A stretch of 32,000 nt of DNA from an archaeon (GTDB lineage Archaea; Asgardarchaeota; Thorarchaeia; Thorarchaeales; Thorarchaeaceae). Where the stretch lies: NCBI GenBank assembly GCA_024275415.1, contig JAJRZD010000042.1, positions 30,001-62,000 of the forward strand, read 5' to 3'. A model generated the notes under the pieces. The model had not been told where the DNA came from. It ran no database searches and saw nothing but the letters and a program-made list of their open reading frames with translations. The position numbers were made by a program, and so were the translations under genes. The number at the start of each line of letters is the position of its first letter. The stretch's first letter is position 1. This document shows positions 3,888-32,000 of this stretch, one piece after another.

Positions 3888-5069
3888 GTGTCATGTGTGA
3901 GCGACCGCATAAAACTTGTCTACTTCGATCAAACACAAAATGAGAGAGGTCGCCTAGATTCAACCTATTCAGAACTAGGTAGATTGCTTAAAGACAATGA
4001 CTACGATGTGCAGCCATATACTGAATTCATGATTCTGCCAAAGAACCTTGAGAGTTGTGATGTGATCGTATTTGGTTGTCCAAACAGCTCGAAACTGCGA
4101 CAGGCCGAGATAGATACACTCAAGAAGTACGTTAAGAAGGGTGGCGGCTTGTTCCTTCTGTCACTTTCGGGTGGGGATAGAGGACTGATGAACAACATGA
4201 GCAAGGTGTCAGAGATATTTGGCATCACCTTCGAGAACACCGCGGTCAAGGATGAGCGAAACAACGCGGGACTTCCAACTATGCCTGTGATCAACATCCT
4301 GACAGATCACCCTACCACGAGAGGAGTGAACGATATTCTGCTGCCTTCCGCATGTGCCCTCAAGGTCACAGACAAAGCGATAGTAATCGCAAAGACCTCA
4401 GATACTGCAGAACCACCCAGCCAGCCAGTGATAGCGGCTGCCGAATTTGGAAAAGGCAGGGTCGTATGTGTGGGAACCTATGAGATATTTCGCCGAGGAG
4501 GAGGATTAAACCATCCTGGAAATACCCAGTTCGCAGTCAATGCATTCAGATGGCTCAGTAAAGGTAGTTTGGAACCTGTAAAGGAGAAAGAAACAGTACC
4601 TGACAAGGGGGAGAAGAAAGTGAAAGCAGCAGACGAGTCCTTTGCTTCCAAGGAAATGGAACAGACCATGAGAAGACTTGTGAATGCAGTATTTGACCTA
4701 CAGAAGGACATTGGGAAGCTTACTGAGAAGGTTTCACATGTGGAAACCAACATAGAACTCCTCAGAGATCAGTTTCAGGACTTCGCAGAGAAGACACAAG
4801 AACAGCTCGGGGTGATGATTCCAGCAAGGCAGTTCAAGAGCGAGGACGAGAACAGGAAGGAAACACTGGAAGCCGACATCAAGTCCCTTGATGCCGAACT
4901 CCGTTCAGTGAAGCAACTGTTAGAGCACATCGAGCAGCGGCATTCTTCGGGAGCGATGCCAAGAGAAGCCTTTGATGAGCAATCCAAGAAGCTGACAGAG
5001 AGGATAGAGAACCTCAGCAAGAAATTGGAAAAGAAAAAGGAAGAAATAGAATCCCTTTCGGCCGAATAG
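3888..5069 (+). CDS. Soluble GIFT (GldG/IFT52; DUF4350-like) domain protein with C-terminal coiled coil
   Basis: Residues ~8-225 show the GIFT pattern (YFDQTQNE, AEIDTLKKYVKKGGGL, HPTTRGV, GKGRVVCVG, N.QF..NAFRWL); residues ~255-393 are heptad-rich. No signal peptide or TM helix. True start probably GTG 3897, after AGGTG. Confidence 0.75.
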   Translation: MSCVSDRIKLVYFDQTQNERGRLDSTYSELGRLLKDNDYDVQPYTEFMILPKNLESCDVIVFGCPNSSKLRQAEIDTLKKYVKKGGGLFLLSLSGGDRGLMNNMSKVSEIFGITFENTAVKDERNNAGLPTMPVINILTDHPTTRGVNDILLPSACALKVTDKAIVIAKTSDTAEPPSQPVIAAAEFGKGRVVCVGTYEIFRRGGGLNHPGNTQFAVNAFRWLSKGSLEPVKEKETVPDKGEKKVKAADESFASKEMEQTMRRLVNAVFDLQKDIGKLTEKVSHVETNIELLRDQFQDFAEKTQEQLGVMIPARQFKSEDENRKETLEADIKSLDAELRSVKQLLEHIEQRHSSGAMPREAFDEQSKKLTERIENLSKKLEKKKEEIESLSAE

Positions 5070-6706: not shown

Positions 6707-8791
6707 CTACTCGTCTGAGTCCCTCATCAGTACAGCAACACTAGAGATCCCGGTCTTGCTCACATCAACGACAGGGACTCCTTGCCATGACTGTACATCG
6801 GTATGGGTGATGAGAAAGATTTGTTTGAATGATTGGTCATTGAGAAGGTTCTGAACAACGGCAGTCCTTCGTTGTTTATCGAGACCTCCCAAAGGCTCGT
6901 CGAGAAGTACACATTTGACGCGGGGGGATATTGCGGGACTCTCTTTCAAAGGACGCATCGCACTCATTGTCCTGCTGATGCCAAGTCGTAGAGCAAGGCT
7001 TACAGCGGTTCGATCACCGTAGCTGAGCTGTGAGGACTTCTTGTCTGCATTGTCGCGCATATCCCGAATTTTCAATAGAAGACCCGCACCACCGCGGCCA
7101 GTAGCCTTTGTAGGTATGAGGTCAATCCCTGAATACTGGTCATTAGTGAATGCACGCACATAGGGATTTGTTGCACCTCGAACGATTCCGATAAGCCTTT
7201 TTTGAATGACATAGTCTGCAAGGAACCCGCTGACCAGTTTCCGCCGCACATATTGGGTGTGTTCGACGAGTGACTTGAGATTGTCAAGCTCGGCACCGAT
7301 ACGCTTCATAGCGACTACATCGGCATCCAGCTGTTTCATCTGCTTTTCTTCGGTGGCAATCGTCTGCTCAATAGAAGCATACTCGGTTCTCAACCCTTTC
7401 AAGTCGCCCATCAACCTTGTTATCTTCAGATGCAATTCATTGATGCTTTTTGATCCATGCTTCTGTAACAAGGAAGAGATTTCGTCAAGCCCACTCTTTG
7501 CAAGTGCAGATTTCATTTCTTCTTTAGCAGTCTGGATTTGATTCTCTATCTTTTCGAGTTCCTGTTGTAGACCAAGTACTCGTTCGGCGGTATTCACGAG
7601 CTTTTCGATTTCTGATTTCTTGTCAGTTGCCTCACGGGATGCCTCGATGAGTTTGTGCCTATCGTTCTTCAATGATTCAGCTGTTTCTACAGATGAGGTG
7701 ATTTTCTGGGTATATTCTTTGATTAACTTGGTACGTTCTTCATTTGTGATTGGTTTTGAACAGGTGGGACATTTTGCATCGTCTACACTGGCCTTCAACG
7801 TGTCCATTGCTTTCTGCAACCGTCTACTTTCGCCTATAAGATTCCCAACTTCAAAATCAATTGCAGATATTTTCTCCTTCAGTCCTTCAATGGTTTCGTC
7901 CAAGCGTTTAGATTGTTTCTTGAGAGAAGTGATTCTCGCAAGGATGAGCTTCTCTTCTGCAACAAGCAGCCCATCATCCTTGCTTAACTCGCGATCTCTC
8001 ATTTCGACTGTACGTTCTAAAACAGAATGCAGCCTGTCAACCTCGTTCTGGAGAGTGCTTAGATTTTCTAGCAAACTTGGGTCAGGGAACTCACTCAGAG
8101 CAGATTCGAGCTTTTTGACCTCGGCATCCTTCCTACCCAACTTGGTCTGATAATCATTGATACGTTTCTCAGTCTTTCGAATCTGTTCTTTGATATAATC
8201 GGGATTCGTGTAGTCCTCTTCCAATGCATTGTATCGATTATTGAGGTCTGTTTCAAGATGTTTTAGTTGATTCTCCATGTCCTCAAGCAAGGCAAGATTA
8301 TAGACATCCACAAGCATGTCACGCAAGACTGACGCTGTAGCATTGGCGATGAGCGCAACCTCGCCTTGACGAACAAGAAGCGTATGCAGTGCCTGATTGG
8401 AATCAATGTTCAAAATGGATTCCATTGCCCTTTCGACACTTCGAGTCTTGTCTGCAATACGTCTCCATGCAGATTTGGATTTCATATACAGGATGACTTT
8501 CATCCCAGAAGCAGAGTCGTACGATCTTTCAATCTTGTATCTATGGCCCATCACTTCGAATATCAGTATCACTTTGCAGAACGAAGAGGAGAAGCTTACT
8601 AACTCGTCATTCGTGGGCTTCACGCTGCTAGGACCCCACAACGCCCAAAGGATTGCTTCAAACAACGAGGACTTGCCTGTAGAATTGGGCCCTTTGATGA
8701 GGATGAGCCCATCAGGCAATTCTCCGTCTTCAGGAAGGGACAGATTCTTGAATGGTTTGAAATTCTGGATTTTGACAGACACTATCTTCAA
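6707..8791 (-). CDS. rad50: Rad50/SbcC ATPase
   Basis: Walker A GPNSTGKSS, Q-loop VRQGE, central Zn hook CPTC between coiled coils, signature LSYGD, Walker B LLDEP, D-loop GGLD, H-loop ITH. TTG start overlaps the mre11 stop (TTGA). Confidence 0.95.
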   Translation of the reverse strand: MKIVSVKIQNFKPFKNLSLPEDGELPDGLILIKGPNSTGKSSLFEAILWALWGPSSVKPTNDELVSFSSSFCKVILIFEVMGHRYKIERSYDSASGMKVILYMKSKSAWRRIADKTRSVERAMESILNIDSNQALHTLLVRQGEVALIANATASVLRDMLVDVYNLALLEDMENQLKHLETDLNNRYNALEEDYTNPDYIKEQIRKTEKRINDYQTKLGRKDAEVKKLESALSEFPDPSLLENLSTLQNEVDRLHSVLERTVEMRDRELSKDDGLLVAEEKLILARITSLKKQSKRLDETIEGLKEKISAIDFEVGNLIGESRRLQKAMDTLKASVDDAKCPTCSKPITNEERTKLIKEYTQKITSSVETAESLKNDRHKLIEASREATDKKSEIEKLVNTAERVLGLQQELEKIENQIQTAKEEMKSALAKSGLDEISSLLQKHGSKSINELHLKITRLMGDLKGLRTEYASIEQTIATEEKQMKQLDADVVAMKRIGAELDNLKSLVEHTQYVRRKLVSGFLADYVIQKRLIGIVRGATNPYVRAFTNDQYSGIDLIPTKATGRGGAGLLLKIRDMRDNADKKSSQLSYGDRTAVSLALRLGISRTMSAMRPLKESPAISPRVKCVLLDEPLGGLDKQRRTAVVQNLLNDQSFKQIFLITHTDVQSWQGVPVVDVSKTGISSVAVLMRDSDE

Positions 8792-10098
8792 TCTGAACCC
8801 TCCTCTGTTATTGTTTCCAGTGTCATTTTCTCGTCATCCTGAGTGACTGACTTTTTGAGCGCGCTCACAGCAATCTTGGTCAGCAGAGCAGGGTCATATC
8901 GGTCATCAATCTTTACAGTTTCGAGATACGCGAGGAAATCTTGCTCTGGATCCTCAATCAAGTATTCAGACTCAATCTCAGGATAAGAAGCAGCATCACC
9001 CTCCAGTGTGGGTGTCCGAACAGTCCATTTCATCTGCGCGATGTTGTACCCGGACTCGTTCGCAAGCACACGCATCCGAAGGGACTCCAAAGAAACATTG
9101 AGGTCTACTAGGTTGACCTTCGATGACGAGCCCTCGAACACCAATCGAACCCTTGCAGCCGTGGCCGAATCCCATCCGGCCTTAATGCCGTTCGCCTCGA
9201 AGAATGCCTCTACCTTCTCGAGAACCGAGTCCACTGTATCATCAGATTCGATAGATATCTTGTCGTTATACACAGGACGAGTGAAATCTAGATGATGCGG
9301 TTTGATAGAAACCGAATGGTTGTCGGTGATATCCACAACCAGAAATCCTTTCTCATGCCGAGTTTCATCAAAGCGCCAACGTTCAGGAGAGCCTGCATAC
9401 CAAGCATTCTTCGCATGCTTGTGCTGATGATGGTCATGACCCAATGCAAAGTAGTCATATTGCAGACTGAACATTGCATCAGGGAGGGTCTCATCAAGGG
9501 TCATCCCATGTGCGACAGCAACAGATATCCTCTTTGGGTCGGGTTTCTGGCAGGTCATGATCCAGTCATGGTATTCTTCCAGAAGATTAGAAGATTCGAG
9601 GACATGCTTGTCTATGAAGGGGTAACAGAACACATCAAGACTCTCAAAGGTACGTACGACAGGCTTTTCGCTAACTATTGCCCTCTTTAGTTCCTGTTGC
9701 GTAACAACATGAAGACCAGGTACAGCCATCTGAAGTCCGTCCAACAGGGAAACGTCCCAGTTGCGATATAGGCCGTGATTCCCCTCGATAATTAGAACTG
9801 GGATTCCTGTGGACTCGATAAAATCCTTTAGGACAGAGATAGCTACTTCTTGGGATACAACAGGGGGTTGAAGTGGATTGCCCTCCCAAGGCGAATTGTA
9901 AAGGTCTCCAGAATGGATGACAATGTCGACTCTTGGCTCAAGTTGTGATATGATCTTGAACAGCTCGGCAAAACGCTCATAGAAGTCGTTCTCAAGCAGC
10001 TGGGTTCTCATCTCAATGCCCCACACATTCTGCCTGATGCCATCTCTGGGTCTGGTTCCAAGATGAGTATCCGAGATATGAGCGATTCGTACTTGCAT
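8788..10098 (-). CDS. mre11: Mre11/SbcD nuclease
   Basis: Phosphoesterase motifs HISDTHLG, HSGDLY, EGNH, AHG, LGHDH, YAGSPE; directly upstream of rad50. Confidence 0.95.
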   Translation of the reverse strand: MQVRIAHISDTHLGTRPRDGIRQNVWGIEMRTQLLENDFYERFAELFKIISQLEPRVDIVIHSGDLYNSPWEGNPLQPPVVSQEVAISVLKDFIESTGIPVLIIEGNHGLYRNWDVSLLDGLQMAVPGLHVVTQQELKRAIVSEKPVVRTFESLDVFCYPFIDKHVLESSNLLEEYHDWIMTCQKPDPKRISVAVAHGMTLDETLPDAMFSLQYDYFALGHDHHQHKHAKNAWYAGSPERWRFDETRHEKGFLVVDITDNHSVSIKPHHLDFTRPVYNDKISIESDDTVDSVLEKVEAFFEANGIKAGWDSATAARVRLVFEGSSSKVNLVDLNVSLESLRMRVLANESGYNIAQMKWTVRTPTLEGDAASYPEIESEYLIEDPEQDFLAYLETVKIDDRYDPALLTKIAVSALKKSVTQDDEKMTLETITEEGSD

Positions 10099-10109
10099 TC
10101 AAACTGACC

Positions 10110-11873
10110 TCAAATGACATGTTTCTCCTTTTTCTTCTTTGTACCTTTCGACGCATACCGTTCTTTGTCTTTCTTGAAGATTTTGTCAAATTTGGGAATC
10201 TTTACAGGTAGAGGCAGTTCCCGGTAAGAAGCGGTCACTATCGCCTCCCCACGGGACATCACGTGGAACTCCTCCTCAAACCCTGAGATATTCACACTTG
10301 CATTTTCAATACAAGCACGAATCTCTTTCTCATTCCCAAGACGTAGATTAATCTCTGTATTCATCTGTGAAAGAATCACATTGTCCAAGACGCTGACCTG
10401 CTGACTGACTACAAGAAGTCCGATATGGAACTTTCGTCCCTGTCTTGAGATGTCCTTGAAGACCGATTGTCCTCGCATCAGCTCAGGGTTCAAGATGGAG
10501 GGTGCTTCTTCCACAGTGATTAGGATTACTGGAAGGTCTCGTGGATCCTTTGTAGGCGAGCTATCATTATTCCCAGATGCCCCATAGAAGCTTCGTGCTT
10601 TAGCCTTGATGCGACTAAAGAAGGGCCTTGGGAGCCTTATCTCAGCTTGTCTGTCAAAGTCGCCAAGAGTGCCACTGCTTTTCAACGCCCTGCGCAAGTC
10701 CGAGAGCGTCCTAGTCACAATCGTGGTCAGGAGGAACTGCTCTCTGTCACTCATCAGACTTGTATTGACCACAAGGATGCGTCCGGTTTCCATTGCCTCA
10801 AAGATATGGTCAAGAACCGATGAACATTGCTCCTCAAAGATAGGACTTCGTTCTAGGAACCGGAGCCGTCGCTGTACTGCTCTGAGTGTGCCAACAGGAG
10901 TGCCATGTGGGTCTCCGTCCATTGACAAGATATCGGATATCCAATTCTCGCGAGCAGAACCATATACAGCATCTATAAACGATGCCATCGGTGGGGAGAA
11001 CTCCATAATGGAGTACAGGTCACGGGGCAAAATCTCATCCCATCGTATGCGAATGTCTTTGCCATATCTCTGTATTTCCCTTGGTGTTGCGGAAAGGGAT
11101 GTTGTTAGATAATAGAAATTACCAAGCACTTGTTGACGTGTGGTGGCATCCATCATCTCGACAATATCTTGGATACCGTACGTATCAGTGCCCTTCGCAA
11201 ACTCATCATGAGGATCGATGCAAAAGGCAGACACCTTGCAGGCGTCATTCAACTGACCTTGGTTGATGGCAAGATTCGTGTCAATCATCGACTTGATTAG
11301 AACCATCATCAGATTGCTTTTTCCAGAACCTGTCGAACCAAAGATTCCAAGGTGCATTGGAAAGAACTTCGTAGGAATCATAATGGGGACATCGAGTGAA
11401 TCCTCTCCAATTTGGAGGTCGCCTACGTAAATCTCACCACCTATCTGGTCTTCAAGCATTTGTTGGACATTTGAGTCTGAAGTGCCAGGACGCGGACGAT
11501 ATACATCTGCAAGATGGTCTGGAAGTCTGCGCGGAGAATGGAATTTCCATGTGCCATCGTCCTTTTCCGCATAGCCAAGCATCTTGCCTGCGACGTAGAG
11601 GAGCATGTTTCGCTCAATGCCCGAAAGATACGAGTCACCCTCTACCATCAATGTGCTAGCGATCTGAGCCATATCATCAATCTGTCGCAAATAGTTCTCA
11701 AGACCTAGAACCCTAAAGAAGAAGACACGTTCGTGCCCATCGCGACAGCTGTAGATCAGGAAAATCTCACCCACACTGACATCGCGGTTATTCCCCATGA
11801 TGCCGAGCAGGGTCTGGTTTCCAACACCAACCTTGCCATAGAGTTCACCAAGTTCGTCCTTTTTCAATGTCAT
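10110..11873 (-). CDS. herA: HerA DNA translocase/helicase
   Basis: N-terminal HAS-barrel-like region, HLGIFGSTGSGKSN Walker A, VEEA Walker B, ISRQGRKF.IGLLVVSQ; operon context. Confidence 0.92.
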   Translation of the reverse strand: MTLKKDELGELYGKVGVGNQTLLGIMGNNRDVSVGEIFLIYSCRDGHERVFFFRVLGLENYLRQIDDMAQIASTLMVEGDSYLSGIERNMLLYVAGKMLGYAEKDDGTWKFHSPRRLPDHLADVYRPRPGTSDSNVQQMLEDQIGGEIYVGDLQIGEDSLDVPIMIPTKFFPMHLGIFGSTGSGKSNLMMVLIKSMIDTNLAINQGQLNDACKVSAFCIDPHDEFAKGTDTYGIQDIVEMMDATTRQQVLGNFYYLTTSLSATPREIQRYGKDIRIRWDEILPRDLYSIMEFSPPMASFIDAVYGSARENWISDILSMDGDPHGTPVGTLRAVQRRLRFLERSPIFEEQCSSVLDHIFEAMETGRILVVNTSLMSDREQFLLTTIVTRTLSDLRRALKSSGTLGDFDRQAEIRLPRPFFSRIKAKARSFYGASGNNDSSPTKDPRDLPVILITVEEAPSILNPELMRGQSVFKDISRQGRKFHIGLLVVSQQVSVLDNVILSQMNTEINLRLGNEKEIRACIENASVNISGFEEEFHVMSRGEAIVTASYRELPLPVKIPKFDKIFKKDKERYASKGTKKKKEKHVI

Positions 11874-11889
11874 CAGATTTCCTCCGTGT

Positions 11890-13233
11890 TCATACTCCTA
11901 AATCATCTCGTAATGGGTTGATTCGCTTAGGGTCATACCCCAGCTCGTGATACACATCTTTTGCAATCGCACGCGCTAGACGTACATCCTCATAACTGAC
12001 CCGACATGCCTCATGTGCCAGAGCAAGCGCCACTGGATATCCATAGTATCGTGCATCCCTAGAAATGAATTCCAGTTCTGAGAAGAGCCTGATCTCATTC
12101 TCCCGAGTTGTTTCCGGGTCATTTGGCACGAAGATATTCTCCAACCACCAGACCCTGTCAAAGTCAATCCTTGAGGGTCTGTTGTCGCTGGAAAAACTGA
12201 AGAGATAGGGCACTGCAAGGACAGGAGGGATATATGTGCGATCCTCATAGATATGAAGACCACCGCCTGGTTCATGTTTGCTGGGAAGCAGGCAGAACCA
12301 TTTCATGCCATCACCAAACTTCTCATTTGCCATCTTAGCGATTCTATGAGCAAATGGAATAGTATGATTCTTGCTTACTGCTGCCAGTGTCACTCCGTTC
12401 TTTCGTGCTAATTGACACAGCTCTCTAAGGATGAACCCGCTAGGCATTGAGGGATACTTCCGTACGAAATGCAAGAAGATAGAAAGAGCGCCATCAAGCA
12501 GCAGGTATTTGGGCCTCAACTTGCTAGTCAGTATGTTTCGAGCCGCTGCATATTCCATGACAACCCTGAGTTCATCATGGACAATTGGGTTTGTGAGAAG
12601 CTGTTCGCGAGATATCAACCCTTCCATACTTTTCAGGTCTGGGACATATTTGTGATACTCGACCGATTTGACAAGATCCTTCAGACTACTAATACTCCCA
12701 TTCGTATGGTCAATGAAGAACGGAAGCACGACCTCAGAAATGTCATTGATCGGATATATCTGCTCCAATGACTCAGCTAACTTCTTCTTGGCATCACCAC
12801 GGACACCTGTGTGCCAATGTAGCTCGAGGAGAGGTTGTTCGCCGAGTTCTGCCTCTATAACGGGCCTATCTAGAGGTTCGAGCAAACGACCTGTGCGAGT
12901 TCCAGTAGATAGAACTATTGTGGCCGAACTTAGAAGATGAACGCGGATATCATCAAGGGTTGTCAGATCGGGTGTGCCAGACCCGTCAATTGCGGCGACA
13001 AGAAAATCTTCATCAATCTGTGGGTTCTTTGGGTAGCAATCAATTTGTGTAAGAAGGTCGTTCATAATTCGTCGCTTGTCTTTCGCAAACTCCTCCTCAG
13101 TTCGCTTATCCTGTTGATTCTTGATATCCTTGAAGGTATACTCCAGTTTCTTCCGGAAGTCCTCTGTAAGGATTCGTTCTAGCATGATACCCCTCTTTGT
13201 CAGTTTAAGAATAAGAAAGCTGATAGCTTTCAT
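11890..13233 (-). CDS. nurA: NurA 5'-3' nuclease
   Basis: AAIDGS, LLLDGAL, GYPVALALAHE motifs; first gene of the operon. ATG 13185 (MLERI, preceded by GAGGG) is a likely true start. Confidence 0.9.
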   Translation of the reverse strand: MKAISFLILKLTKRGIMLERILTEDFRKKLEYTFKDIKNQQDKRTEEEFAKDKRRIMNDLLTQIDCYPKNPQIDEDFLVAAIDGSGTPDLTTLDDIRVHLLSSATIVLSTGTRTGRLLEPLDRPVIEAELGEQPLLELHWHTGVRGDAKKKLAESLEQIYPINDISEVVLPFFIDHTNGSISSLKDLVKSVEYHKYVPDLKSMEGLISREQLLTNPIVHDELRVVMEYAAARNILTSKLRPKYLLLDGALSIFLHFVRKYPSMPSGFILRELCQLARKNGVTLAAVSKNHTIPFAHRIAKMANEKFGDGMKWFCLLPSKHEPGGGLHIYEDRTYIPPVLAVPYLFSFSSDNRPSRIDFDRVWWLENIFVPNDPETTRENEIRLFSELEFISRDARYYGYPVALALAHEACRVSYEDVRLARAIAKDVYHELGYDPKRINPLRDDLGV

Positions 13234-13416: not shown

Positions 13417-14148
13417 TTGTCGCTGTCAGAAGGGACTATGGGAAGTGGTTCATTGCTTAAAATGACTTACATGGGTCATACGACTTTCAGGTTTGAAACG
13501 GATGAAGTATCACTACTTGTCAACCCAGGAATCTGGGATGACGAGCCAGTTGTTCCTGCTGACCATGATGTAAGAGTCATTGCAGTGACAAATCATGTGA
13601 ATGATGCATTGGGCAATGCCACAGAGATTGCAGAAAATGCAAAGGCTTGGATACTCGGAAATGAAGCTACGATTCAGAAGGCACAGGCTCAAGGAGGGAA
13701 GCCGTGGCTACTCCATGTACTGCGATCGGAAACACCCTATGAGATTCCTGGGATGAAACTCACTCCTTTCTCACTCTCGAGGAACGATATTGAGAGAGGC
13801 GGGCGTTTCGAGAATCTCGGGTTCTATATCGAGATGGGAAAGATGAAAATTGCATACTTGGGTGATACCGTGGTAAGAGGTCCGTTCGGCCAACTTGAGA
13901 TCGATATCATGATCACCCCGATTGGGGGGAATGATGTCTTCGAAGTGAAGGATGCCACAAGCCTGTGTATCGATGCAAAGCCAAGAGTCGTCTTCCCGAT
14001 GAGATGGACCTCACCTGAACAACCAAAGAAGTTCATGCGCTATATTGACCAGTTCGGTCAAGGTACAAACGCCCTTGTTCTTGAACCGGGACAAGTGTTT
14101 CAGGCGGAATGGGCTGCCGGAAACGAATTCAGATACAAGGTAGACTGA
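13417..14148 (+). CDS. Metallo-beta-lactamase fold protein (UPF0173-like) with degenerate metal site
   Basis: YMGHTTF start, GDT, PIGG and PM.W landmarks of the family, but HxHxDH reads NHVNDA, IDP reads VNP and PMHY reads PMRW. Start may be ATG 13438. Confidence 0.8.
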   Translation: MSLSEGTMGSGSLLKMTYMGHTTFRFETDEVSLLVNPGIWDDEPVVPADHDVRVIAVTNHVNDALGNATEIAENAKAWILGNEATIQKAQAQGGKPWLLHVLRSETPYEIPGMKLTPFSLSRNDIERGGRFENLGFYIEMGKMKIAYLGDTVVRGPFGQLEIDIMITPIGGNDVFEVKDATSLCIDAKPRVVFPMRWTSPEQPKKFMRYIDQFGQGTNALVLEPGQVFQAEWAAGNEFRYKVD

Positions 14149-14220
14149 TATTATCAAATCCCGTTATCTAGATGACCAAACCATCATCTGGACAAGCATA
14201 GGATAAGAAGGTGACTCCTG

Positions 14221-16002
14221 TTGAGTGAACACAAATCGATAATAATTGATCTGGAAGAAACCGAAATAGCGAATCTCAGTGAGTTTGGAGATCTATCGAC
14301 AATCAAAACCACTGGCATATTGAGTGTGAACAATGTTTCGGAACGATGTAGGGTCTGGAACGTCAGGGTTTTGGTGCCTGATGAACGTGAGGGCACAGAT
14401 ATCCAAGAAGACACTCTTATTGCAGGGGAAATAGAAGCCGGTGGAAAATGGGAACACGCCTACACTGTAGATGTGAGTGCACCCATAGTCACGCTCACCG
14501 AAACGTATGATACATGTAGTGACTTTGGAGGTGATCTGCCGAATTGGGCATATGTCCACGGAAAAGAAACCAAAGTGAAGGTCACTCTGCATCTGAAAAA
14601 TGAAACAGATGCCCAGCTTGAGAATGTTATTTTAAACAAGACCATTCCTCCAGAGCTAACGAATGTCGAGATATCAAGTGTGAAGTCCGGCAACGCAGAG
14701 TATGATGAAGGAACCAGACAAGTGGTTTGGAGAGATCTGGTGATATATCCCAATGAAGAATCCACATTGGTATTGACAGGGATTAGTCGTGTGGATGATG
14801 TTGAGATCAGAAATGCCGGAGAGATTGTCGTTACCTACAAAGCGGAGAACCTTCAGAGATCATCACTCAAACCAGATATGACTGCCCTGACCGAGTTCCT
14901 GACAGGAATAGAAACAGCCGAAACCGAGCCAAACGAGTGGGAGTGTACCTTAGAATGCTCAAACGAAAGCGACCTCATGGTCAGGCTTGATAAAGCAGAG
15001 GTCTACCTGATTCCCGAGGATGGAGGCGAGAAAGTAAAGAAAATCGAGGAAGCCCCCGCATTGGAGATGATCCCTGGTCAAGAATGGTCTTCGACTTTTG
15101 AGGTCAGCAGCAAGTCACCACCAAAATGCACTCAAGAAGTGATATACACGCCCATGAATAGAGTCACTTCGCGTGTCATTGGAACCATTGAGAAGGCAGG
15201 TCAACCAATACCTGTTGCACATATCACATATACGAAGGTGTTCGATCCTCCCGAGGTGAACAGCTTTGACAAGACACCTGTCGAAGTTGATATCGAGGTG
15301 AAGAATGCAGGAACAGCCAAGCTGAATTCCATCAAAATCGTCGATAAATTACCTGACGATGTGATGCCTCCCAAGACAGAACATGTTTCTATCTGGGTAC
15401 GGGGCGAAGAATACACAGGCGAATTCAAAGTCACAGTTGATCCGGACGACCAAAATCCCGAAACCCCACATACAATGACATTTGAGATACTAAACCTAAA
15501 AGATACCGTAGGCGAGCTGGAGCCTGGCGAGTCGGTGAAAGTGAATTATGCGATTATGGCATGGAGAAGCAGACCTGAGAAGGAGTACCCGAGCCCTATC
15601 GAGATTTATGCAAATACTCATCCTGAAGGAGTCACCGCGGACGCCATCAGCGAGCCTGACACGCACAAGATCGGGATTCTCTATAAGAAGCGGAGGATTT
15701 CCGTAAAGAAGGCCATCAACAAGGGAGCGAACGCAGGAGAATACATCATCTTGTTGGTGGTCGAAAACAAGGGTGAGGTGACAGTCGAGAATGTTAAGGT
15801 CACTGATTGGATTCCATCCGCTTTTGAATATGTTTCGACTGACCCGATGGAGGAAGAGCCGAGTGTGACCGAGGTCGAGGACTGCTCGGCCATGACATGG
15901 ATTTGGACAAGGATGAACCCTGGAGATCAAAAGAAGCTACGGGTTTCGGTGAAAGGCGAAGGGGAATACGAACGCAGAGAGCCCGAAGTCGTATCAGACT
16001 GA
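14221..16002 (+). CDS. Acidic cytoplasmic multi-beta-sandwich protein: mu-homology-like N-terminal region plus DUF11-like Ig domains
   Basis: 593 aa, TTG start after AGGTGA. Three N..NV...D/T.LP...W..L.PGE-type repeats (~115-190, 333-450, 492-580). No signal peptide or TM segment. Confidence 0.7.
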   Translation: MSEHKSIIIDLEETEIANLSEFGDLSTIKTTGILSVNNVSERCRVWNVRVLVPDEREGTDIQEDTLIAGEIEAGGKWEHAYTVDVSAPIVTLTETYDTCSDFGGDLPNWAYVHGKETKVKVTLHLKNETDAQLENVILNKTIPPELTNVEISSVKSGNAEYDEGTRQVVWRDLVIYPNEESTLVLTGISRVDDVEIRNAGEIVVTYKAENLQRSSLKPDMTALTEFLTGIETAETEPNEWECTLECSNESDLMVRLDKAEVYLIPEDGGEKVKKIEEAPALEMIPGQEWSSTFEVSSKSPPKCTQEVIYTPMNRVTSRVIGTIEKAGQPIPVAHITYTKVFDPPEVNSFDKTPVEVDIEVKNAGTAKLNSIKIVDKLPDDVMPPKTEHVSIWVRGEEYTGEFKVTVDPDDQNPETPHTMTFEILNLKDTVGELEPGESVKVNYAIMAWRSRPEKEYPSPIEIYANTHPEGVTADAISEPDTHKIGILYKKRRISVKKAINKGANAGEYIILLVVENKGEVTVENVKVTDWIPSAFEYVSTDPMEEEPSVTEVEDCSAMTWIWTRMNPGDQKKLRVSVKGEGEYERREPEVVSD

Positions 16003-16057: not shown

Positions 16058-16423
16058 TTATGAAACAGTTTCTTCTTTTTCTATTTCTTGTAGCTCTTCT
16101 TCGATTTTCTTCAATTCTTCATCAATTACGTCCAGTGGCACAAAATCCCCAACCTCATCAGCAGGATGCGTGGCCAACGTGTAATGTACATTGAATCCGG
16201 ATAGTGTTTCGTGGAGAGCATTGGCAGTTTCAAGGATGGCAGTGGTCAAATCAGCACCACTCATTTCTCTTGTCGAATCATGATAGTACACAAAATCGTA
16301 AGCTCCACGCACGAGTGTGAATCCCATCTCGAGCAGTTTCTTGATTATTATGGCAGGGGACGCACCCTCGCTACTAAACCAGATTGATACGCGTGTCACG
16401 TATGACATATCTTCAGACCTCAT
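16058..16423 (-). CDS. Conserved small archaeal hypothetical protein with acidic helical tail
   Basis: WFSSEGA.P...L..MGF..V.G.YDFVY pattern recalled from uncharacterised archaeal proteins; last gene of the helicase-arcS-raSEA run. Confidence 0.65.
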   Translation of the reverse strand: MRSEDMSYVTRVSIWFSSEGASPAIIIKKLLEMGFTLVRGAYDFVYYHDSTREMSGADLTTAILETANALHETLSGFNVHYTLATHPADEVGDFVPLDVIDEELKKIEEELQEIEKEETVS

Positions 16424-25924: not shown

Positions 25925-26150
25925 TTTCTGACTGCCTTACGAGAATTTGATCTTTTACATTTCTCGTGCGAATTTCTTGTTTCAAGGAGTTATAATTCTA
26001 TCTTCAAAAGGGGCCCTGAAAAGCCAAGAAGAATTTGCTCAGTCTTAGTGGTACCGAAAATTAACCAACGCACGTTCATATTTGTTGAATATCTGTTTCA
26101 TTCTACTCTGCTTATGATAGCAAATTCAGACATTTCAAACAACTCTGATT

Positions 26151-26335
26151 TGTAAGGTAACAAAACATTTGAGACAAGTGGGAGCCACAGGAGACCATCA
26201 CATGAAAACGTGATTAAGATGATGAGCTCCGTGACTCACCGAGAACGAATTGTGAAGTATGCCCTTAAGAAATCTGTGACTGCCGCCTCCATGGTGTTCA
26301 GTGTTTCGAGGTCCTCCGTCTACCCTTGGCGCAAA
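26151..26335 (+). mobile_element. IS481-like insertion sequence remnant (candidate left end plus transposase HTH)
   Basis: Begins TGTAAGGTAACAAAACATTTGAGACA (IS481-family ends start with TGT), then a GGAG RBS and an HTH-coding fragment. No matching right end in the window. Confidence 0.5.
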
Positions 26336-26383
26336 TTGGTGCTGTATAAAGTGATTGTTTTCAAACAGGCAGGAGATTTGTAA
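26219..26383 (+). pseudogene. Truncated transposase N-terminal helix-turn-helix (54 aa, below the ORF-track cutoff)
   Basis: Hand translation MMSSVTHRERIVKYALKKSVTAASMVFSVSRSSVYPWRK-LVLYKVIVFKQAGDL*. The first 39 aa fit the R.RIVKYA....V..A.....SR..VY.W.K transposase HTH pattern; no DDE domain follows. Confidence 0.6.
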
Positions 26384-27058
26384 TTGAAGAAGCAGAATAA
26401 TAGATTAATTGTGATTGGAATTACAATCCTCTTTCTAATGCCCCATCTGAGTACAATACTAGCAGGTTCCTCATCAAACCTTACTAAAAGGCATTTGATC
26501 CCTGCATACTTAGAGTCCACACCATTCGATGAGGATAGAGCTTATGAAACTCCAGTTTCCGGGGTTATTACAGTTGTTAGTGCTGATTCAAGTACTGGCG
26601 ATGCACAAATAGAAGGATCTACGAATTGGCCATTGACTGGATTGGGCACTTGGCATGCGTATGTATATGTACACATACAGATTATCCCTACACTGCTCAA
26701 TCAGAAAGTGAAGATTGGATTTTCGGGATTGCTAAGTTACAAACTGGAAAGTTTTTGGCAAGGATCCGGTTCCATTGATATATCAGTAGTCTTACTCTCG
26801 GCCGCAGAAACTGAGCTGGATAGTCATTTGATATGGGCAGACTCGGTTTACGATTCGGAGGCATCGGGAACACCAGTCTGGAGTTCAAGCACTACATATA
26901 AACTGGACGGCGAATTTACTCTTCAATATGGTCAAACGTATTATCTAGCTGTTCGATTACATGTAGTACTTGATAACAATGGCGGGATTCACTCAGCGAC
27001 AGGTGTAGACCCTGCATACCTTGATGTAAGCGCAATTCGGTATTATTTCTACACATAA
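26384..27058 (+). CDS. Exported beta-rich hypothetical protein (paralog B)
   Basis: TTG start after GGAG; signal-peptide-like MKKQNNRLIVIGITILFLMPHLSTILA; candidate TATAAA at 26345-26350. Confidence 0.75.
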   Translation: MKKQNNRLIVIGITILFLMPHLSTILAGSSSNLTKRHLIPAYLESTPFDEDRAYETPVSGVITVVSADSSTGDAQIEGSTNWPLTGLGTWHAYVYVHIQIIPTLLNQKVKIGFSGLLSYKLESFWQGSGSIDISVVLLSAAETELDSHLIWADSVYDSEASGTPVWSSSTTYKLDGEFTLQYGQTYYLAVRLHVVLDNNGGIHSATGVDPAYLDVSAIRYYFYT

Positions 27059-27067
27059 CAGATTAGT

Positions 27068-27091
27068 TGAAGATGCGCTAGTGCATCTTCA
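27068..27091 (+). terminator. Hairpin downstream of paralog B
   Basis: Perfect 9-bp stem TGAAGATGC/GCATCTTCA with 6-nt loop, 10 nt after the stop codon. Confidence 0.45.
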
Positions 27092-27205
27092 CATTTATCT
27101 TATTCAGATGCTCAGCGAATTAATAATTGAGGTTTCAAATCACAAGCATGAGGAATTTAAGCAATTACATGCGCAATATTATCGTATAGTGTAGGGGCCT
27201 GAAAG

Positions 27206-29872
27206 ATGAGTTACTTCGAACTTGGTACATCAAATAAAGTTCTAGTCTTTTGCTTTGTCCTGTCATGCTTAATCCCATCTATGACGTATATTCTAATAGA
27301 TACTTCAGCAGGAGCTAACTGGATAAAATCCATTGAGAACTTGCCAATAGATGCATCAATTATAACTACGAAGAAACAAGATCAAATTCTTCAGACGGCA
27401 CGAGGATTAGAAGTCGTAGCAAGCATCGAGAAGAGCATACTTGGATATTTACAAGTGAATGCTACAGAAACGCTCGCTACTACTCAGTATGGATCAGTAG
27501 AGTATTTTGGCTTATTTCCAAGATTGGTTTCTCTCATATCAGGACATCTTCCGATGAATTCTTCTGAGGTTGCCATTGAGATTAATTATTCTCGATATCA
27601 TGGTTTCAATCTGAGTGACGTTCTAAGTTTCGGGAATAATGAATCTACGTCATTTGATATCGTAGGTTTCTTCGAGATAAAATCCAAGCATCCATACTCA
27701 GGGGGCTTATTGAATGGTCGTCCAACTATTATCTTAGATATGTCATCATTCGAAAAAACCAGAAACCTGCTAGAAACTTATCGGTTCTTTTATGATATCG
27801 ATATAAAGAATGAATTACTTACTCCTATTGTCTACGATTCGCTAGACACGATCCTTAAAGAGATTTCAGAACCTATCATACAAATTGGATCTGCCTATGG
27901 AGAAACAGAAATTCATATCCTAAGGGTTTTTCAGGAGTTTGAGATACAACAGGAGTTAGCAAATAGGCAGCTTGTTTACATCGAGATGCCAACATGGGTA
28001 GTTACAGTTGTTCTTGTATCGATGGGCGTTCACTATGTTCAGGCTTCACATCAATCATTGATTCGTGTTTTCAAGTCGAGGGGTGCAAGCCACCGACAAA
28101 TTATACGATTTGAACAACGAAATCTTGTCAAGAGCTTTTTTACGGGTGCACCACTTGGAATAATTATGGGCAGTGTACTTGCACTCGTAATGGCTACTAT
28201 AAGCAATATGACCGATGAATCAGCCATTGAAACCATCACACCCTTGTTCATTTCATCTAGGTCAATCATCAATATTCTATCTCTTGGATTTGTTCTACCA
28301 TGGGTCATTTGGATGATAATATTCTTTATCTCTGATATTCAAAGAACCTCAAAGAGAATTTCTGATTCTGGTTTGAATGACTATTTGATAAAGGGGCTAT
28401 TAGTGACATTATTCTTTGTTGGAATGGTTAGCATCGTTCTTTCGATATCTTCCAAGATACGGCCTTCTCAGAATCCTTGGATTGTGAATGGATTATTGAT
28501 GGGTAGTATCCTTGTGACTCCGCCAATCATTTGGATTGCTTGGAAAAGTATTGCTCACATTGGATTCAAGTCGAGGTCTAGTAGCGATATACGAACAAAG
28601 AGGATGTCATCTCTTTTAGGTTCAGCTAGAGTAATCTTGGTTAGGAAAAGGATGTTAGTTACAGTCACGGTGGTAACACTGGCAATATCATCCTCACTCA
28701 TAGTAGGAAATGTCAGTGAGATGGTTATCATATCTCGCATCAATCAAGCACGCCAAGTTCTTGGAAGCGATGTCACATTTACGGTATTCCCTTCGAAACT
28801 GGAAGACTTGGAAGAAAATCTGATACGGCTTCGGAGTATTGAATATGTAAAAGATGCGACCTACGTCACATATCGTCAAGCTAAAGTGGGCGACGAATTG
28901 TATGCAGATTTGATAGGGATAAGACCAATTGAATTCGGTAAAACCGTATATACACAGCTTGGAAAGGATATGGAGGACTCGGCTATCAAGCCATATTTAG
29001 ATGTGATGAAGAATACGACCAATGGCTTGATAATAAGCCAAGACTTGGCAGACATTCTTCATGTTTCGATTGGAGATACATTACGAGCGGCTCTGTTTGT
29101 TCAGCAAGAAGGGGATTTTCTTCATATCCCTGTGGATTTCCTCATTCTATTCATATCCGAAGAGTTGACGAATCCGGAATTGCTTATGGAATACAATAAC
29201 AACCACGAACTGATTTCAGAGAATCTTGGAAAGCGAATAATGTGGGCAAATATGGAATACATTCTAAGCTTGTCAGATTTTGATATCTCTTATGGCATTA
29301 TATTAGCAAAGACAGATAGCCATGTTCAGGAAGACCAACTTGCTGAACTCATCAGTGATATCAATATTGAAAACTATAGTCCAAAGGGGTATTCAGCGTG
29401 GGTCTACGCTAATCCAGCCGAGATCATCTATGTTGATTCACTGAGAAGAACTGTTGGGACAGTAGCACTAGTTGGGACTTTTATCGTGTGCTTCACCCTA
29501 CCATTGGTATATTTTCACTCTGACCGGGAATCAAGAGATCGTGAGATTGCCATACTCAAAGCGCTAGGAGTGTTGGATTCATCAATATTCAAATCATACT
29601 TCATCGAGTTCCTATATCTTGTGTTGGTAATGATGGAGTTGCTTGTTCTATTTATCCCTGTGTTCTTAATGACATCACTTACGATTGGAATCGATGGGGC
29701 CTGGAATTATGTTAGGTTGGAAACAAACATCCTGTATGCATATCTACTAGCTCCGATAGCGGTATTCTTGTTTGCGGGCATCCTATCCATAATATTCAGT
29801 CTGAGGAAACGCTCAGAATCTATTAGATTGATGTTACGCAGACAAGAGATGTATCATTTGGAGGAATGGTAA
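27206..29872 (+). CDS. MacB/FtsX-type ABC transporter permease (two repeats in one chain)
   Basis: Two TM + extracytoplasmic domain + TM-cluster units; FKSRGAS..QI, LGSDV, IGDTL, RDREIAILKALG motifs. Confidence 0.88.
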   Translation: MSYFELGTSNKVLVFCFVLSCLIPSMTYILIDTSAGANWIKSIENLPIDASIITTKKQDQILQTARGLEVVASIEKSILGYLQVNATETLATTQYGSVEYFGLFPRLVSLISGHLPMNSSEVAIEINYSRYHGFNLSDVLSFGNNESTSFDIVGFFEIKSKHPYSGGLLNGRPTIILDMSSFEKTRNLLETYRFFYDIDIKNELLTPIVYDSLDTILKEISEPIIQIGSAYGETEIHILRVFQEFEIQQELANRQLVYIEMPTWVVTVVLVSMGVHYVQASHQSLIRVFKSRGASHRQIIRFEQRNLVKSFFTGAPLGIIMGSVLALVMATISNMTDESAIETITPLFISSRSIINILSLGFVLPWVIWMIIFFISDIQRTSKRISDSGLNDYLIKGLLVTLFFVGMVSIVLSISSKIRPSQNPWIVNGLLMGSILVTPPIIWIAWKSIAHIGFKSRSSSDIRTKRMSSLLGSARVILVRKRMLVTVTVVTLAISSSLIVGNVSEMVIISRINQARQVLGSDVTFTVFPSKLEDLEENLIRLRSIEYVKDATYVTYRQAKVGDELYADLIGIRPIEFGKTVYTQLGKDMEDSAIKPYLDVMKNTTNGLIISQDLADILHVSIGDTLRAALFVQQEGDFLHIPVDFLILFISEELTNPELLMEYNNNHELISENLGKRIMWANMEYILSLSDFDISYGIILAKTDSHVQEDQLAELISDINIENYSPKGYSAWVYANPAEIIYVDSLRRTVGTVALVGTFIVCFTLPLVYFHSDRESRDREIAILKALGVLDSSIFKSYFIEFLYLVLVMMELLVLFIPVFLMTSLTIGIDGAWNYVRLETNILYAYLLAPIAVFLFAGILSIIFSLRKRSESIRLMLRRQEMYHLEEW

Positions 29873-32000
29873 TTGTTTCTATCTGAAAGAGTGACATTCA
29901 ACACTAATATTACTATTCTCGGAATAGTATCGTGGTTACTACTATCATCCGCCGTTAGTGGAAGTATTACTATTATCGCGATATTTGAGTCGAACATCAC
30001 AATGGATTATTTAGATTCAGTATCATTGGACATTGGTGTCAGTGCACAGAAAGAGTACAAAACTCAAACTACGATGAAGATTGGCGATGTGGTTGCGATA
30101 ATTGAACGACTGGGAATGTCCAATCGAGTAGAAGCTATCGGTCGATTATTGGTGTCAACTAGTTCAATTTCATGGAACCCTATTACACTAATAGGAGTCA
30201 ATGACTCCTTTTTTTATTCATTCGATGATTCCTTCACAATTCAAACCTCATCTAGTCTTGACCCATACTCGTGCATAGTGGATCTCGAATACTTATTGGA
30301 ACAGGGACTTCATATCGGAGATAACATCACATTGACACTTTTCGGAACTAACGAGAATGAGAAAAGCATCTCAAAGGAGTTTCGAATAATTGGAACATAT
30401 GATTCGACATTCTTGGATGCAGAGAAGAAAATTAATCCATATGATGACTGGATTGAGCCAAGAATAATTACTTCATATAATGGAGTTCGTGCTAGATACA
30501 ATGATAGCTATTTTGGAGAGTCAAATGGTGTCAATGTGGATATTCTCATAAGAATCCGAAGGGACTTGCTAATTGGTAAGGATGTAGATCACATACTTGG
30601 TTTTATTCAGGAAACGCAAAGTGAAATTGATCAATTGCTATTACCGTACTTCTTTGTCTATTTGAGCGGACTTGAGGATGCTATATCTTCGTTGGAGGGT
30701 TGGAGGAATGCTGCGTATGGACTGTTTGGAGTTGTTTTCTTGCCAGGGGTAATATCATCTTTTTTGCTCACAATTTCCTATTTATCATTCCATAAAGTGA
30801 ATTCTTCAAAACGCTTTGTTGAATGGCGAGGCGCAAGTAAAAAACAAAGAGCGCTATGGGAGTGTACACCTTTTATCTTCTGTGGAGTTACTGGTATTCT
30901 CATCTCAATTGTCATAGATGTTGTTCTAATATACGCACTTCTGAATACTCGATCATTAAACTATATTCTTAATATTGCATCCACAGCATCCTTACCTGCA
31001 TCATTCTTATTGCTAGTGCCATTACTTGTTATAACTGGATCGTATTTTCTGTGGGATGAAATCAAAAAGAAGCCCACTATCAGATTCGCAAACTGGCACA
31101 AGATGTTCTTCTCCACGGTTTTCATTCTATTGCTTGTGTATAGTGGGGTTTCAGTAAGCATCCTCTCACAATCTTTTTGGTCAAACCTTGGATATTCTGC
31201 AACATATATTGTTACGTACCAACTAATCCTATCACTTGTTGTATTCTTAGTTCTAGGAATCTCAGGATTCGCAGTCGTTGGAAGGAACATGTATTCATCG
31301 ATAATGCATTATATCGGCTTTAGAAAGCAGAATATTCTATTTCGCATCATTGTTCGTAGATTATCAAGAAATGGGATTAGATTCATTTTGTCATTGTTCT
31401 TTATCATCCTCGTTACTGCATCTATAGGATATGGGCAGATAATTTCTCAAACTTCTCACAGACACATCCATGATACAATTTGGTTCTCAAATGGAGCTGA
31501 CCTTCGAGTGACCAGCGATTCAGACCCTGATTCGATTCTTCAGGTTCTTGATAACTCGAATAGTATCAGCTCAATGAGCAAGGTAGACATCTACCAAGCA
31601 TACTTTCTAAGTCAGGGTGAGATGGTACACACTTTACTATTTGGGCTTTCCGAATCGTGGTGGGATACTGTATTTCTACGAGATGATTTCTTTATTGGTC
31701 AAAGTCAGCAAAATGCAAGGGATGCCTTTCTCAAAAGTAACTTTTCGGCAATAACTAACTTTGGCAAAGTCATCGGGTTCGACTCAACAGGGCCGTTAGT
31801 AGACAACTCCGTACAGCTCTTTCTAACAGAAAACTCATCAGATTACATATCTTTGAATGTCGTAGATAGATTAGCTTTCTTTGATATTGAATCAATGTCA
31901 TTTAGTCAGAGTTTCCTGCCAGGTCATCCAAGGTTCTCGGGAAATTTCATTTTGGTTCGTGACATGGTTTTTGAGTCGTTCAACATTTCAGCAAGCAGTT
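29873..32000 (+). CDS. Second MacB/FtsX-type ABC permease; 3' end lies beyond the window
   Basis: Hand translation from TTG 29873 (GGAGG RBS). No stop was found in the lines read, which include the last ones up to 32000. ITLIGV, GLHIGDNITL, F.IIG.Y, WRGASK.Q, NGADLRV and multiple TM helices. Missing from the ORF track because it has no stop. Confidence 0.85.
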   Translation, partial: MFLSERVTFNTNITILGIVSWLLLSSAVSGSITIIAIFESNITMDYLDSVSLDIGVSAQKEYKTQTTMKIGDVVAIIERLGMSNRVEAIGRLLVSTSSISWNPITLIGVNDSFFYSFDDSFTIQTSSSLDPYSCIVDLEYLLEQGLHIGDNITLTLFGTNENEKSISKEFRIIGTYDSTFLDAEKKINPYDDWIEPRIITSYNGVRARYNDSYFGESNGVNVDILIRIRRDLLIGKDVDHILGFIQETQSEIDQLLLPYFFVYLSGLEDAISSLEGWRNAAYGLFGVVFLPGVISSFLLTISYLSFHKVNSSKRFVEWRGASKKQRALWECTPFIFCGVTGILISIVIDVVLIYALLNTRSLNYILNIASTASLPASFLLLVPLLVITGSYFLWDEIKKKPTIRFANWHKMFFSTVFILLLVYSGVSVSILSQSFWSNLGYSATYIVTYQLILSLVVFLVLGISGFAVVGRNMYSSIMHYIGFRKQNILFRIIVRRLSRNGIRFILSLFFIILVTASIGYGQIISQTSHRHIHDTIWFSNGADLRVTSDSDPDSILQVLDNSNSISSMSKVDIYQAYFLSQGEMVHTLLFGLSESWWDTVFLRDDFFIGQSQQNARDAFLKSNFSAITNFGKVIGFDSTGPLVDNSVQLFLTENSSDYISLNVVDRLAFFDIESMSFSQSFLPGHPRFSGNFILVRDMVFESFNISASS

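Follow-up and report, generated by a model that had tools for sequence, protein, structure and literature searches.

Eukaryotic vesicle coats read cargo and motifs through their mu-homology domains (MHDs), and in delta-COP and the muniscins (FCHo, SGIP1, and Syp1) the MHD is a motif-binding hub that is joined to other modules. The origin of this domain bears on how membrane trafficking arose. Adap_comp_sub domains have previously been reported from most Asgard phyla "with a sparse distribution", where they are never fused to a longin domain and adaptor protein (AP) domains are never fused or co-located (Eme et al. 2023, Nature 618:992, PMC10307638). Supplementary Table 3 of that study contains 44 Adap_comp_sub candidates that include Thorarchaeota orthologues, such as GBS33_23710, as well as members from Loki-, Hel-, Hermod-, and Jordarchaeia. 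Here, we describe one such protein, predicted to contain an N-terminal MHD followed by two CLIPPER domains, that is encoded at 14221..16002 on the forward strand of a 32,000-nucleotide stretch of a Thorarchaeaceae genome (contig JAJRZD010000042.1). We call this whole stretch the window and the protein family MHD-CLIPPER; coordinates are those of the window unless stated otherwise. An earlier reading of the DNA letters (the sequence-only reading) had proposed an adaptor-related scaffold whose novelty needed checking. The identification of the family is not new since it is already in the 2023 supplementary table: the printed sequence of GBS33_23710 matches the N-terminal sequence of P0060, a protein 65% identical over its full length to the 593-aa protein described here. 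A few entries of the table look unrelated to the MHD-CLIPPER family. The published listing thus concerns the same proteins, but it gives the Pfam label alone, with no structure, architecture, or partner. Our literature search found no structure, partner, or function for the family, and the structure-based papers on eukaryotic signature proteins that we found contained no discussion of the MHD. Beyond the listing, we add a stringent fold test, a near-universal distribution, a domain map with an insertion, and the hypothesis that a metallo-beta-lactamase (MBL)-fold protein is a partner.

The open reading frame (ORF) at 14221..16002, taken from the ORF list, is a real gene. It encodes 593 amino acids, with the stop codon included in these coordinates, and begins with TTG. 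A Shine-Dalgarno-like GGTGA motif, read from the sequence and putatively acting as such, is located 6 nt 5' of the TTG at 14210..14214 (+ strand), and the N-terminus of the TTG-started protein lines up with the N-termini of ATG-started orthologues. The gene is present as a single copy in the source genome. As noted in the sequence-only reading, the protein is very acidic (pI 4.58; 110 D+E versus 61 K+R) and has no export signal. Its highest 19-residue Kyte-Doolittle mean is 0.81; therefore, it contains neither a signal peptide nor a transmembrane segment, and no sorting signal was found in it. Only two Pfam or NCBIfam families matched above their cut-offs. These were DUF11 (PF01345), at 52.5 bits compared to a cut-off of 24.6 and in three stretches with the best at residues 495-578, and TIGR01451 at 46.7 bits. 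There are only two canonical DUF11 domains in the protein and no long tandem-repeat stalk. A PDB sequence search with this single protein found nothing.

We modeled the structure with AlphaFold2 (AF2), which gave a pLDDT of 93.1 and a pTM of 0.75 for the full-length protein using a 72-row alignment and a pLDDT of 95.3 and a pTM of 0.85 for residues 1-332 alone. Using VIA-align for an unbiased comparison of the domain model with 48,161 representative PDB chains, we found that ranks 1-10 were MHDs without exception. The MHDs matched included those of mu2 (9fiw_M; Z 16.0, rmsd 3.4, 229 residues aligned), mu4 (Z 15.9, rmsd 2.8, 210 aligned), mu3A (Z 15.8, rmsd 3.0, 218 aligned), mu1 (Z 15.0, rmsd 3.3, 217 aligned), delta-COP (Z 14.8, rmsd 3.3, 216 aligned), SGIP1 (Z 14.6, rmsd 3.4, 216 aligned), yeast delta-COP (Z 13.3, rmsd 3.5, 219 aligned), and Syp1 (Z 12.7, rmsd 3.8, 220 aligned). 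Below the MHDs there was a gap, followed by single immunoglobulin (Ig) domains with Z scores of 11.3 or lower and 107-139 aligned residues. The match to mu2 is sequential and spans the whole domain: model residues 2..327 lie on chain residues 168..435, so that both subdomains and approximately 90% of mu2 are covered and residue 327 falls on the mu2 C-terminus. The full-length model compared to mu2 gave Z 17.0, rmsd 3.2, and 225 aligned residues. With Foldseek, all 50 of the best matches to the domain model were MHDs, with E-values from 2e-12 and target-normalised TM-scores of 0.38-0.72 (approximately 0.5-0.7 for isolated MHD chains), and the ESM Atlas contained eukaryotic mu clusters at TM-scores of 0.55-0.61. 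A Foldseek search with the full-length model was discarded because it was swamped by multi-Ig proteins and its TM-scores were meaningless. In these models, residues 2-327 are predicted with high confidence to form an MHD, a banana-shaped fold of two sandwiches with subdomain B nested in subdomain A. The sequence-only reading had posed this nested topology against tandem, independent Ig domains; the predicted model favors the nested MHD, with top matches that are all MHDs and Z scores of 16-17 to mu2.

Profile searches with members of the family also led to MHDs; identity to the eukaryotic domains is only 11-14%. The Pfam profile PF00928 matched several Thorarchaeota orthologues at 24-27.5 bits, compared to a curated cut-off of 31.6, and distant family members at 34.4-35.2 bits, which is above this cut-off. 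In relatives, these matches always occurred at residues ~108-230 and profile positions ~116-243, and a weak colinear match in the Thorarchaeota orthologue P0079 placed residues 12-220 on profile positions 10-222. When a profile made from a diverse alignment of the N-terminal 240 residues of the family was compared with the PDB, the 22 best sequence matches were all MHDs. E-values were 1.2e-4 for AP-3 mu, 1.5e-3 for AP-2 mu, and 3e-3 for delta-COP, with residues ~116-215 on subdomain B and the return strand. The assignment of residues ~120-186 to subdomain B in the sequence-only reading is thereby borne out. The same holds for its claim that residues 6-36 align without gaps to the first strands of the MHD: HMMER independently placed family positions 5-35, again without gaps, on the mu2 segment that starts NELFLDVLES, with D10, E13, G23, and G32 matched. 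Diverse N-terminal alignments alone reached MHDs; a Thorarchaeota-only alignment had no match in the PDB, and residues 330-593 had no match among PDB sequences.

We assembled a domain map from AF2 strands, profile coordinates, and the two sizes of Foldseek alignment obtained with the domain model, approximately 240 and 346 columns. All of its features are on the + strand. The N-terminal part of subdomain A (residues 2-105; 14224..14535) is supported by AF2 and profile alignments and has six predicted strands at residues 7-19, 25-37, 45-51, 65-71, 76-83, and 90-97. Subdomain B (residues 110-198; 14548..14814) is a DUF11-like sandwich nested in A and is placed by the profile matches to the subdomain B of AP-3, AP-2, and delta-COP. 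Strands that return into subdomain A follow (residues 200-236; 14818..14928); here, residues 196-215 align with the AP-3 mu return strand, and in the relative P0148 the PF00928 positions extend to 243, corresponding to approximately residue 231 of the 593-aa protein. After this there is an extra beta unit of six strands (residues 239-311; 14935..15153), to which the most conserved motif of the family (the E234, P237, W240, and N248 region) is assigned, and then the MHD closing strand with a conserved RVxGxIxK (residues 312-327; 15154..15201), which superposes on the C-terminal strand of mu2. Approximately 100 of the 326 MHD residues are unaligned with eukaryotic MHDs in VIA-align. Judging from the aligned ranges, about 75 residues are probably inserted ahead of the closing strand and have no eukaryotic counterpart. 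Thus, the return strand that the sequence-only reading had placed at residues 201-216 is retained, but the MHD ends at residue ~327, not ~216, with the extra strands lying between; no other point of what that reading observed needs correction.

The remainder of the protein is comprised of two DUF11/CLIPPER Ig domains, also recognized in the sequence-only reading. The first (residues ~335-476; 15223..15648) is defined by Pfam, AF2 strands, and the complex model described below, in which it provides the main predicted docking surface. The second (residues 485-591; 15673..15993) includes the best DUF11 stretch and the TIGR01451 match. The first of these domains has K339 and D375, both invariant in orthologues, at the positions of the CLIPPER isopeptide lysine and catalytic aspartate; N442 or N465 would be a candidate for an asparagine partner if such a bond forms.

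More than 200 clusters (at 90% identity) contain proteins with 62-83% identity to the 593-aa protein and lengths of 593-603 aa, nearly all of them from Thorarchaeota metagenome-assembled genomes. An exhaustive HMMER search extended the family to 348 representatives with full-length relatives at 22-35% identity. The distant relatives that carry names are assigned to Ranarchaeia, Jordarchaeales, Heimdallarchaeota, and 'Promethearchaeota', and all of the named relatives that we looked up are Asgard. Among 400 genomes of the phylum, 348 contain a match to the N-terminal profile, including 77 of the 90 that are of high quality, and 80 of 85 genera are represented. The family therefore appears to be near-universal in Asgard archaea, not sparse. 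In the family to which the source belongs, each genome carries a single copy; there are up to seven matches in another family. Many longer relatives contain N-terminal HEAT repeats, PPAPPG-type repeats, polybasic tracts, or a conserved domain of approximately 90 residues, with these modules joined via acidic or proline-rich linkers. Among 249 relatives of at least 400 aa, 247 have no N-terminal hydrophobic stretch (median pI 4.6), and the other two have an N-terminal hydrophobic helix. The sequence-only reading would have been undermined by homologues that were broadly distributed secreted proteins, which is not what this set contains. The missing hydrophobic N-terminus together with the HEAT, proline-rich, and polybasic extensions suggests that these proteins are located in the cytosol. 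In the ESM Atlas, some clusters with the same fold are labelled 'commonest Thermoplasmatota'; this label is also on near-identical Thorarchaeota-like clusters, so we treated it as unreliable and perhaps an artefact of the taxonomy. In one ESM Atlas cluster with this fold, 23% of members carry PF27408 (AF2028_C).

Directly upstream of the MHD-CLIPPER gene, on the same strand and 72 nt away, is a gene for a UPF0173-type MBL-fold protein (13417..14148, + strand) with a probable true start near 13438. It was identified by Pfam (Lactamase_B_3) and by PDB matches over its whole length to TM_1162 (E 5e-24) and Igni_1254 (E 2e-16). The HxHxDH motif reads N-H-V-N-D-A in this genome with the reading frame intact, and the protein looks like a pseudoenzyme. 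Replacement of the motif in Thorarchaeota, in the sister family f2, and in Ranarchaeia contrasts with the orthologues from families f15 and f16, in which HxHxDH is intact. The two genes are adjacent and on the same strand at 31 of 31 Thorarchaeota (f1) loci, as well as in f2, f15 (including a Jordarchaeales locus), f16, and Ranarchaeia. Apart from the pair itself, neighbors differ among the f15, f16, and Ranarchaeia loci. In twelve other families, the MBL gene is not next to an MHD-family gene, and strong MBL orthologues are restricted to lineages that have the gene pair. Within f1, the MBL gene is missing from exactly those genomes that lack the MHD gene. Both are missing in five genomes of genera g14 and g15 that are 90-99% complete; these genomes are related, and their joint absence may reflect one loss event.

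A predicted complex of the two proteins had an ipSAE of 0.74 (0.72-0.75 between runs), and the best of three controls scored 0.00. Of 80 solved complexes, 58 attained this mark, as did two of 110 mismatched pairs; these counts are rough because we used our own alignments. Contacts agreed between runs to 88% or more, and the pLDDT of the partner was 90 or higher. We know of no solved complex of this type, making it unlikely that the model is recalling one. The predicted interface involves both CLIPPER domains at residues 343, 350-353, 382-388, 411, 444, 446, 521, and 563-569, and those in the first domain are invariant among Thorarchaeota orthologues. On the MBL-fold protein, R201, Y202, Q205, and F206 belong to the predicted interface. 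Conservation of the interface in Thorarchaeota rows is 0.95 versus 0.77 for the rest of residues 335-593 (Mann-Whitney p 6e-5). Outside of Thorarchaeota, it equals the background (0.27 versus 0.27), a pattern in the sequences that fits a lineage-restricted partner. The model thus supports, at the level of prediction, docking of the MBL-fold protein on the two CLIPPER domains. Among the longer relatives that we inspected, none was an MBL-MHD fusion.

The reading that we favor, with a probability of roughly 0.7, is that this protein is a cytosolic, stand-alone member of the MHD superfamily that functions as a non-enzymatic scaffold, that it is orthologous to the Adap_comp_sub candidates of Asgard archaea and represents them in Thorarchaeota, and that its CLIPPER domains dock the MBL-fold protein. 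By analogy with eukaryotic MHDs, the MHD would present a surface for binding peptides or proteins. The two CLIPPER domains are predicted from the complex model to hold the UPF0173-type protein encoded upstream, and the MHD-CLIPPER protein would in this way link an MBL-like subunit to whatever the MHD recognises. More tentatively, and with odds that we place clearly below even, the MHD-CLIPPER protein may form a stable heterodimer with a degenerate UPF0173 MBL-fold protein in Thorarchaeota and a few other lineages, and the family may be a near-universal Asgard hub that predates the use of the MHD in AP complexes, COPI, and muniscins. If so, these proteins would offer a tractable system, in a prokaryote, for asking which ligands MHDs had before there were vesicle coats.

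Several observations weigh against this scaffold reading. The 593-aa protein itself has no PF00928 match even at an E-value of 10, and this profile is silent in the protein's own genome; control genomes are silent too, so the latter has little weight. All of the structures are predicted, and the nested topology and insertion are read from aligned ranges. The score for the complex reflects how confident the model is in its prediction and is not a measured quantity. Genes that are adjacent co-vanish trivially in fragmented assemblies. The MBL orthologue is present in 0 of 135 genomes of family f22, most of which carry the MHD family, and in family f28 an MBL relative occurs where the MHD protein is absent. 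With the MBL orthologue limited to a few lineages, pairing with it cannot be the general function of the MHD-CLIPPER family. No ligand of this MHD is known, and we know of no WxW or DPF ligand in archaea. The pocket of mu2 that binds YxxPhi motifs includes F174, D176, K203, W421, and R423. In the 593-aa protein, I8 is at the position of F174 and D10 at that of D176; the conserved R318 of RVxGxIxK may correspond to R423. Only D10 and possibly R318 resemble this pocket.

A related explanation, which we regard as possible but doubtful, is that the protein is mainly an accessory, substrate-recruiting, or regulatory subunit of a UPF0173 MBL hydrolase. The MHD would then bind the substrate of the enzyme, and the pair would have become non-catalytic in Thorarchaeota. 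This is suggested by the conservation of the two-gene unit over five families, by the state of HxHxDH, which the partners from f15 and f16 keep and those from Thorarchaeota, f2, and Ranarchaeia have lost, by the complex model passing its controls, and by the loss of both genes together in g14 and g15. However, most Asgard lineages have the MHD-CLIPPER family, often in multiple copies, without this MBL orthologue, and the interface is unconserved outside of Thorarchaeota. To our knowledge, UPF0173 proteins have no established biochemical role.

It is unlikely, in our estimation, that the protein serves an archaeal AP- or COPI-like vesicle coat as its cargo-recognising medium subunit, binding membranes and sorting motifs in the tails of membrane proteins. 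The protein does share its fold with the MHDs of mu subunits, delta-COP, and muniscins, and D10 lies on D176 of the mu2 YxxPhi pocket. In addition, some paralogues have polybasic N-termini or, rarely, an N-terminal transmembrane helix that could place them at membranes, a Promethearchaeota paralogue is encoded two genes from an Arf/Gtr1-like GTPase, and other AP domains are scattered in Asgard genomes (Eme et al. 2023). On the other hand, the MHD begins at residue 2 with no longin domain in front of it, and PF01217 (Clat_adaptor_s) does not match the protein. At E<=0.01, neither Clat_adaptor_s nor Adaptin_N has a match in the genome, which is 92.9% complete; these are weak negatives since divergent homologues could be missed, and control genomes were silent for PF01217 too. 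The MHD is acidic (pI 4.44; 61 D+E versus 30 K+R), whereas mu2 has basic lipid-binding patches. The neighboring genes are for DNA repair, tRNA modification, and the MBL-fold protein, with no trafficking genes among them, and AP domains in Asgard archaea are never fused or co-located (Eme et al. 2023). Thus, from the proposal in the sequence-only reading of a cytosolic coat- or adaptor-like protein, the MHD fold and the cytosolic location stand, but a role in a coat or in cargo adaptation has no direct support.

We consider it improbable that the likeness to MHDs is convergent, with an array of DUF11/CLIPPER-type Ig domains packing like an MHD without common ancestry. Such an origin could account for DUF11 and PF00928 matching subdomain B over the same residues and for the low identity to eukaryotic MHDs, and a solved CLIPPER domain does superpose on part of the model (Z 10.1, rmsd 3.4, 119 aligned). 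By contrast, the MHD match runs in order over both subdomains and ~90% of mu2, with a Z score that exceeds that of every single Ig domain by 4-5. PF00928 scores above its curated cut-off in several members, and the colinear weak matches reach the first strands, as in P0079. Moreover, the canonical C-terminal DUF11 domains, though better-scoring for DUF11, are never matched by PF00928. Finally, we find it scarcely credible that the protein is exported to act at the cell surface or as the stalk of an adhesin, as typical DUF11/CLIPPER proteins do. The proteins from which DUF11 is chiefly described are fibrillar adhesins of the cell surface and surface proteins of archaea (PMC12617251), and two relatives have an N-terminal hydrophobic helix, but the protein has no signal peptide, transmembrane segment, or sorting signal, a hydrophobic N-terminus is missing from 247 of 249 relatives, the length is fixed at ~593 aa with a single copy in the genome, and the HEAT and proline-rich fusions of relatives are typical of cytosolic proteins.

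The wider genomic context of the gene is housekeeping in nature. Upstream and on the other strand is a complete Rad50-Mre11-HerA-NurA operon for DNA end resection (6707-13233, - strand; the NurA match is weak at 25 bits), and the surroundings also include a radical-SAM gene, an ArcS-like gene, and a helicase gene downstream. Convergent to the MHD-CLIPPER gene is a gene of 121 codons (16058..16423, - strand) whose product matches no Pfam family and ends in an acidic tail rich in glutamate. Using tblastn, we found it beside the MHD gene in nearly all f1 loci and in none outside of f1; it may be unrelated to the MHD protein. In a Promethearchaeota locus (L004), a 353-aa Arf/Gtr1-RagA-type GTPase is encoded at 8127-9188 of that locus, two genes downstream of a 687-aa MHD-family paralogue, and in a Ranarchaeia locus (L006) a roadblock/LC7 gene is directly downstream of the MHD-CLIPPER orthologue. 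Elsewhere in the window, a 393-aa protein (3888-5069, + strand) has an IFT52-type GIFT domain (PF23355; E 1.7e-14, 54 bits compared to a cut-off of 27.2) at residues 11-120 followed by a coiled-coil-like half. This is a further domain held in common with eukaryotic machinery, in this case intraflagellar transport. GC content drops from ~0.47 to 0.38-0.40 over 26000-32000, and the large ORFs in this region (27206-29872 and 29873-31999, the latter running off the end of the window) match no family except for an FtsX-like permease C-terminus. This region may be a foreign island.

The locus can be compared with several described systems. The upstream protein matches the UPF0173 hydrolases TM_1162 and Igni_1254 over its full length, but the Thorarchaeota copies are without the HxHxDH histidines. 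The DUF11/CLIPPER adhesins (PF01345; PMC12617251; PDB 9ifr) resemble the two C-terminal domains, which match PF01345 and TIGR01451 above cut-offs, and their N-x-G ... [DK]-x-[LI]-P signature recurs in subdomain B; unlike these surface repeat stalks, the 593-aa protein is cytosolic, short, and without a stalk. The MHDs of AP mu1-mu4 (e.g. AP-2 mu2; PDB 1bw8, 2pr9, 9fiw) have in common with it the two-sandwich all-beta fold with B inserted in A, which aligns over 210-230 residues at Z 15-17, as well as the G-x-A-x-[YF]...W motif of subdomain B (G157, W170), the D10 and E13 of the first strand, and both glycines. The AP mu subunits differ in having an N-terminal longin domain, which the 593-aa protein lacks, and it is not known in a heterotetramer. 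AP mu2 has basic PIP2 patches, whereas the MHD described here is acidic, and most residues of the YxxPhi pocket are not conserved in it. The 593-aa protein also adds ~75 residues before the last strand and two Ig domains. The fold match to delta-COP and the muniscins is at Z 12.7-14.8, and the likeness to these extends to architecture, since the Asgard paralogues likewise tether the MHD to N-terminal modules by long acidic or proline-rich linkers. The modules themselves differ, being F-BAR or longin modules in delta-COP and the muniscins and HEAT repeats, a ~90-aa domain, and CLIPPER domains in the Asgard proteins.

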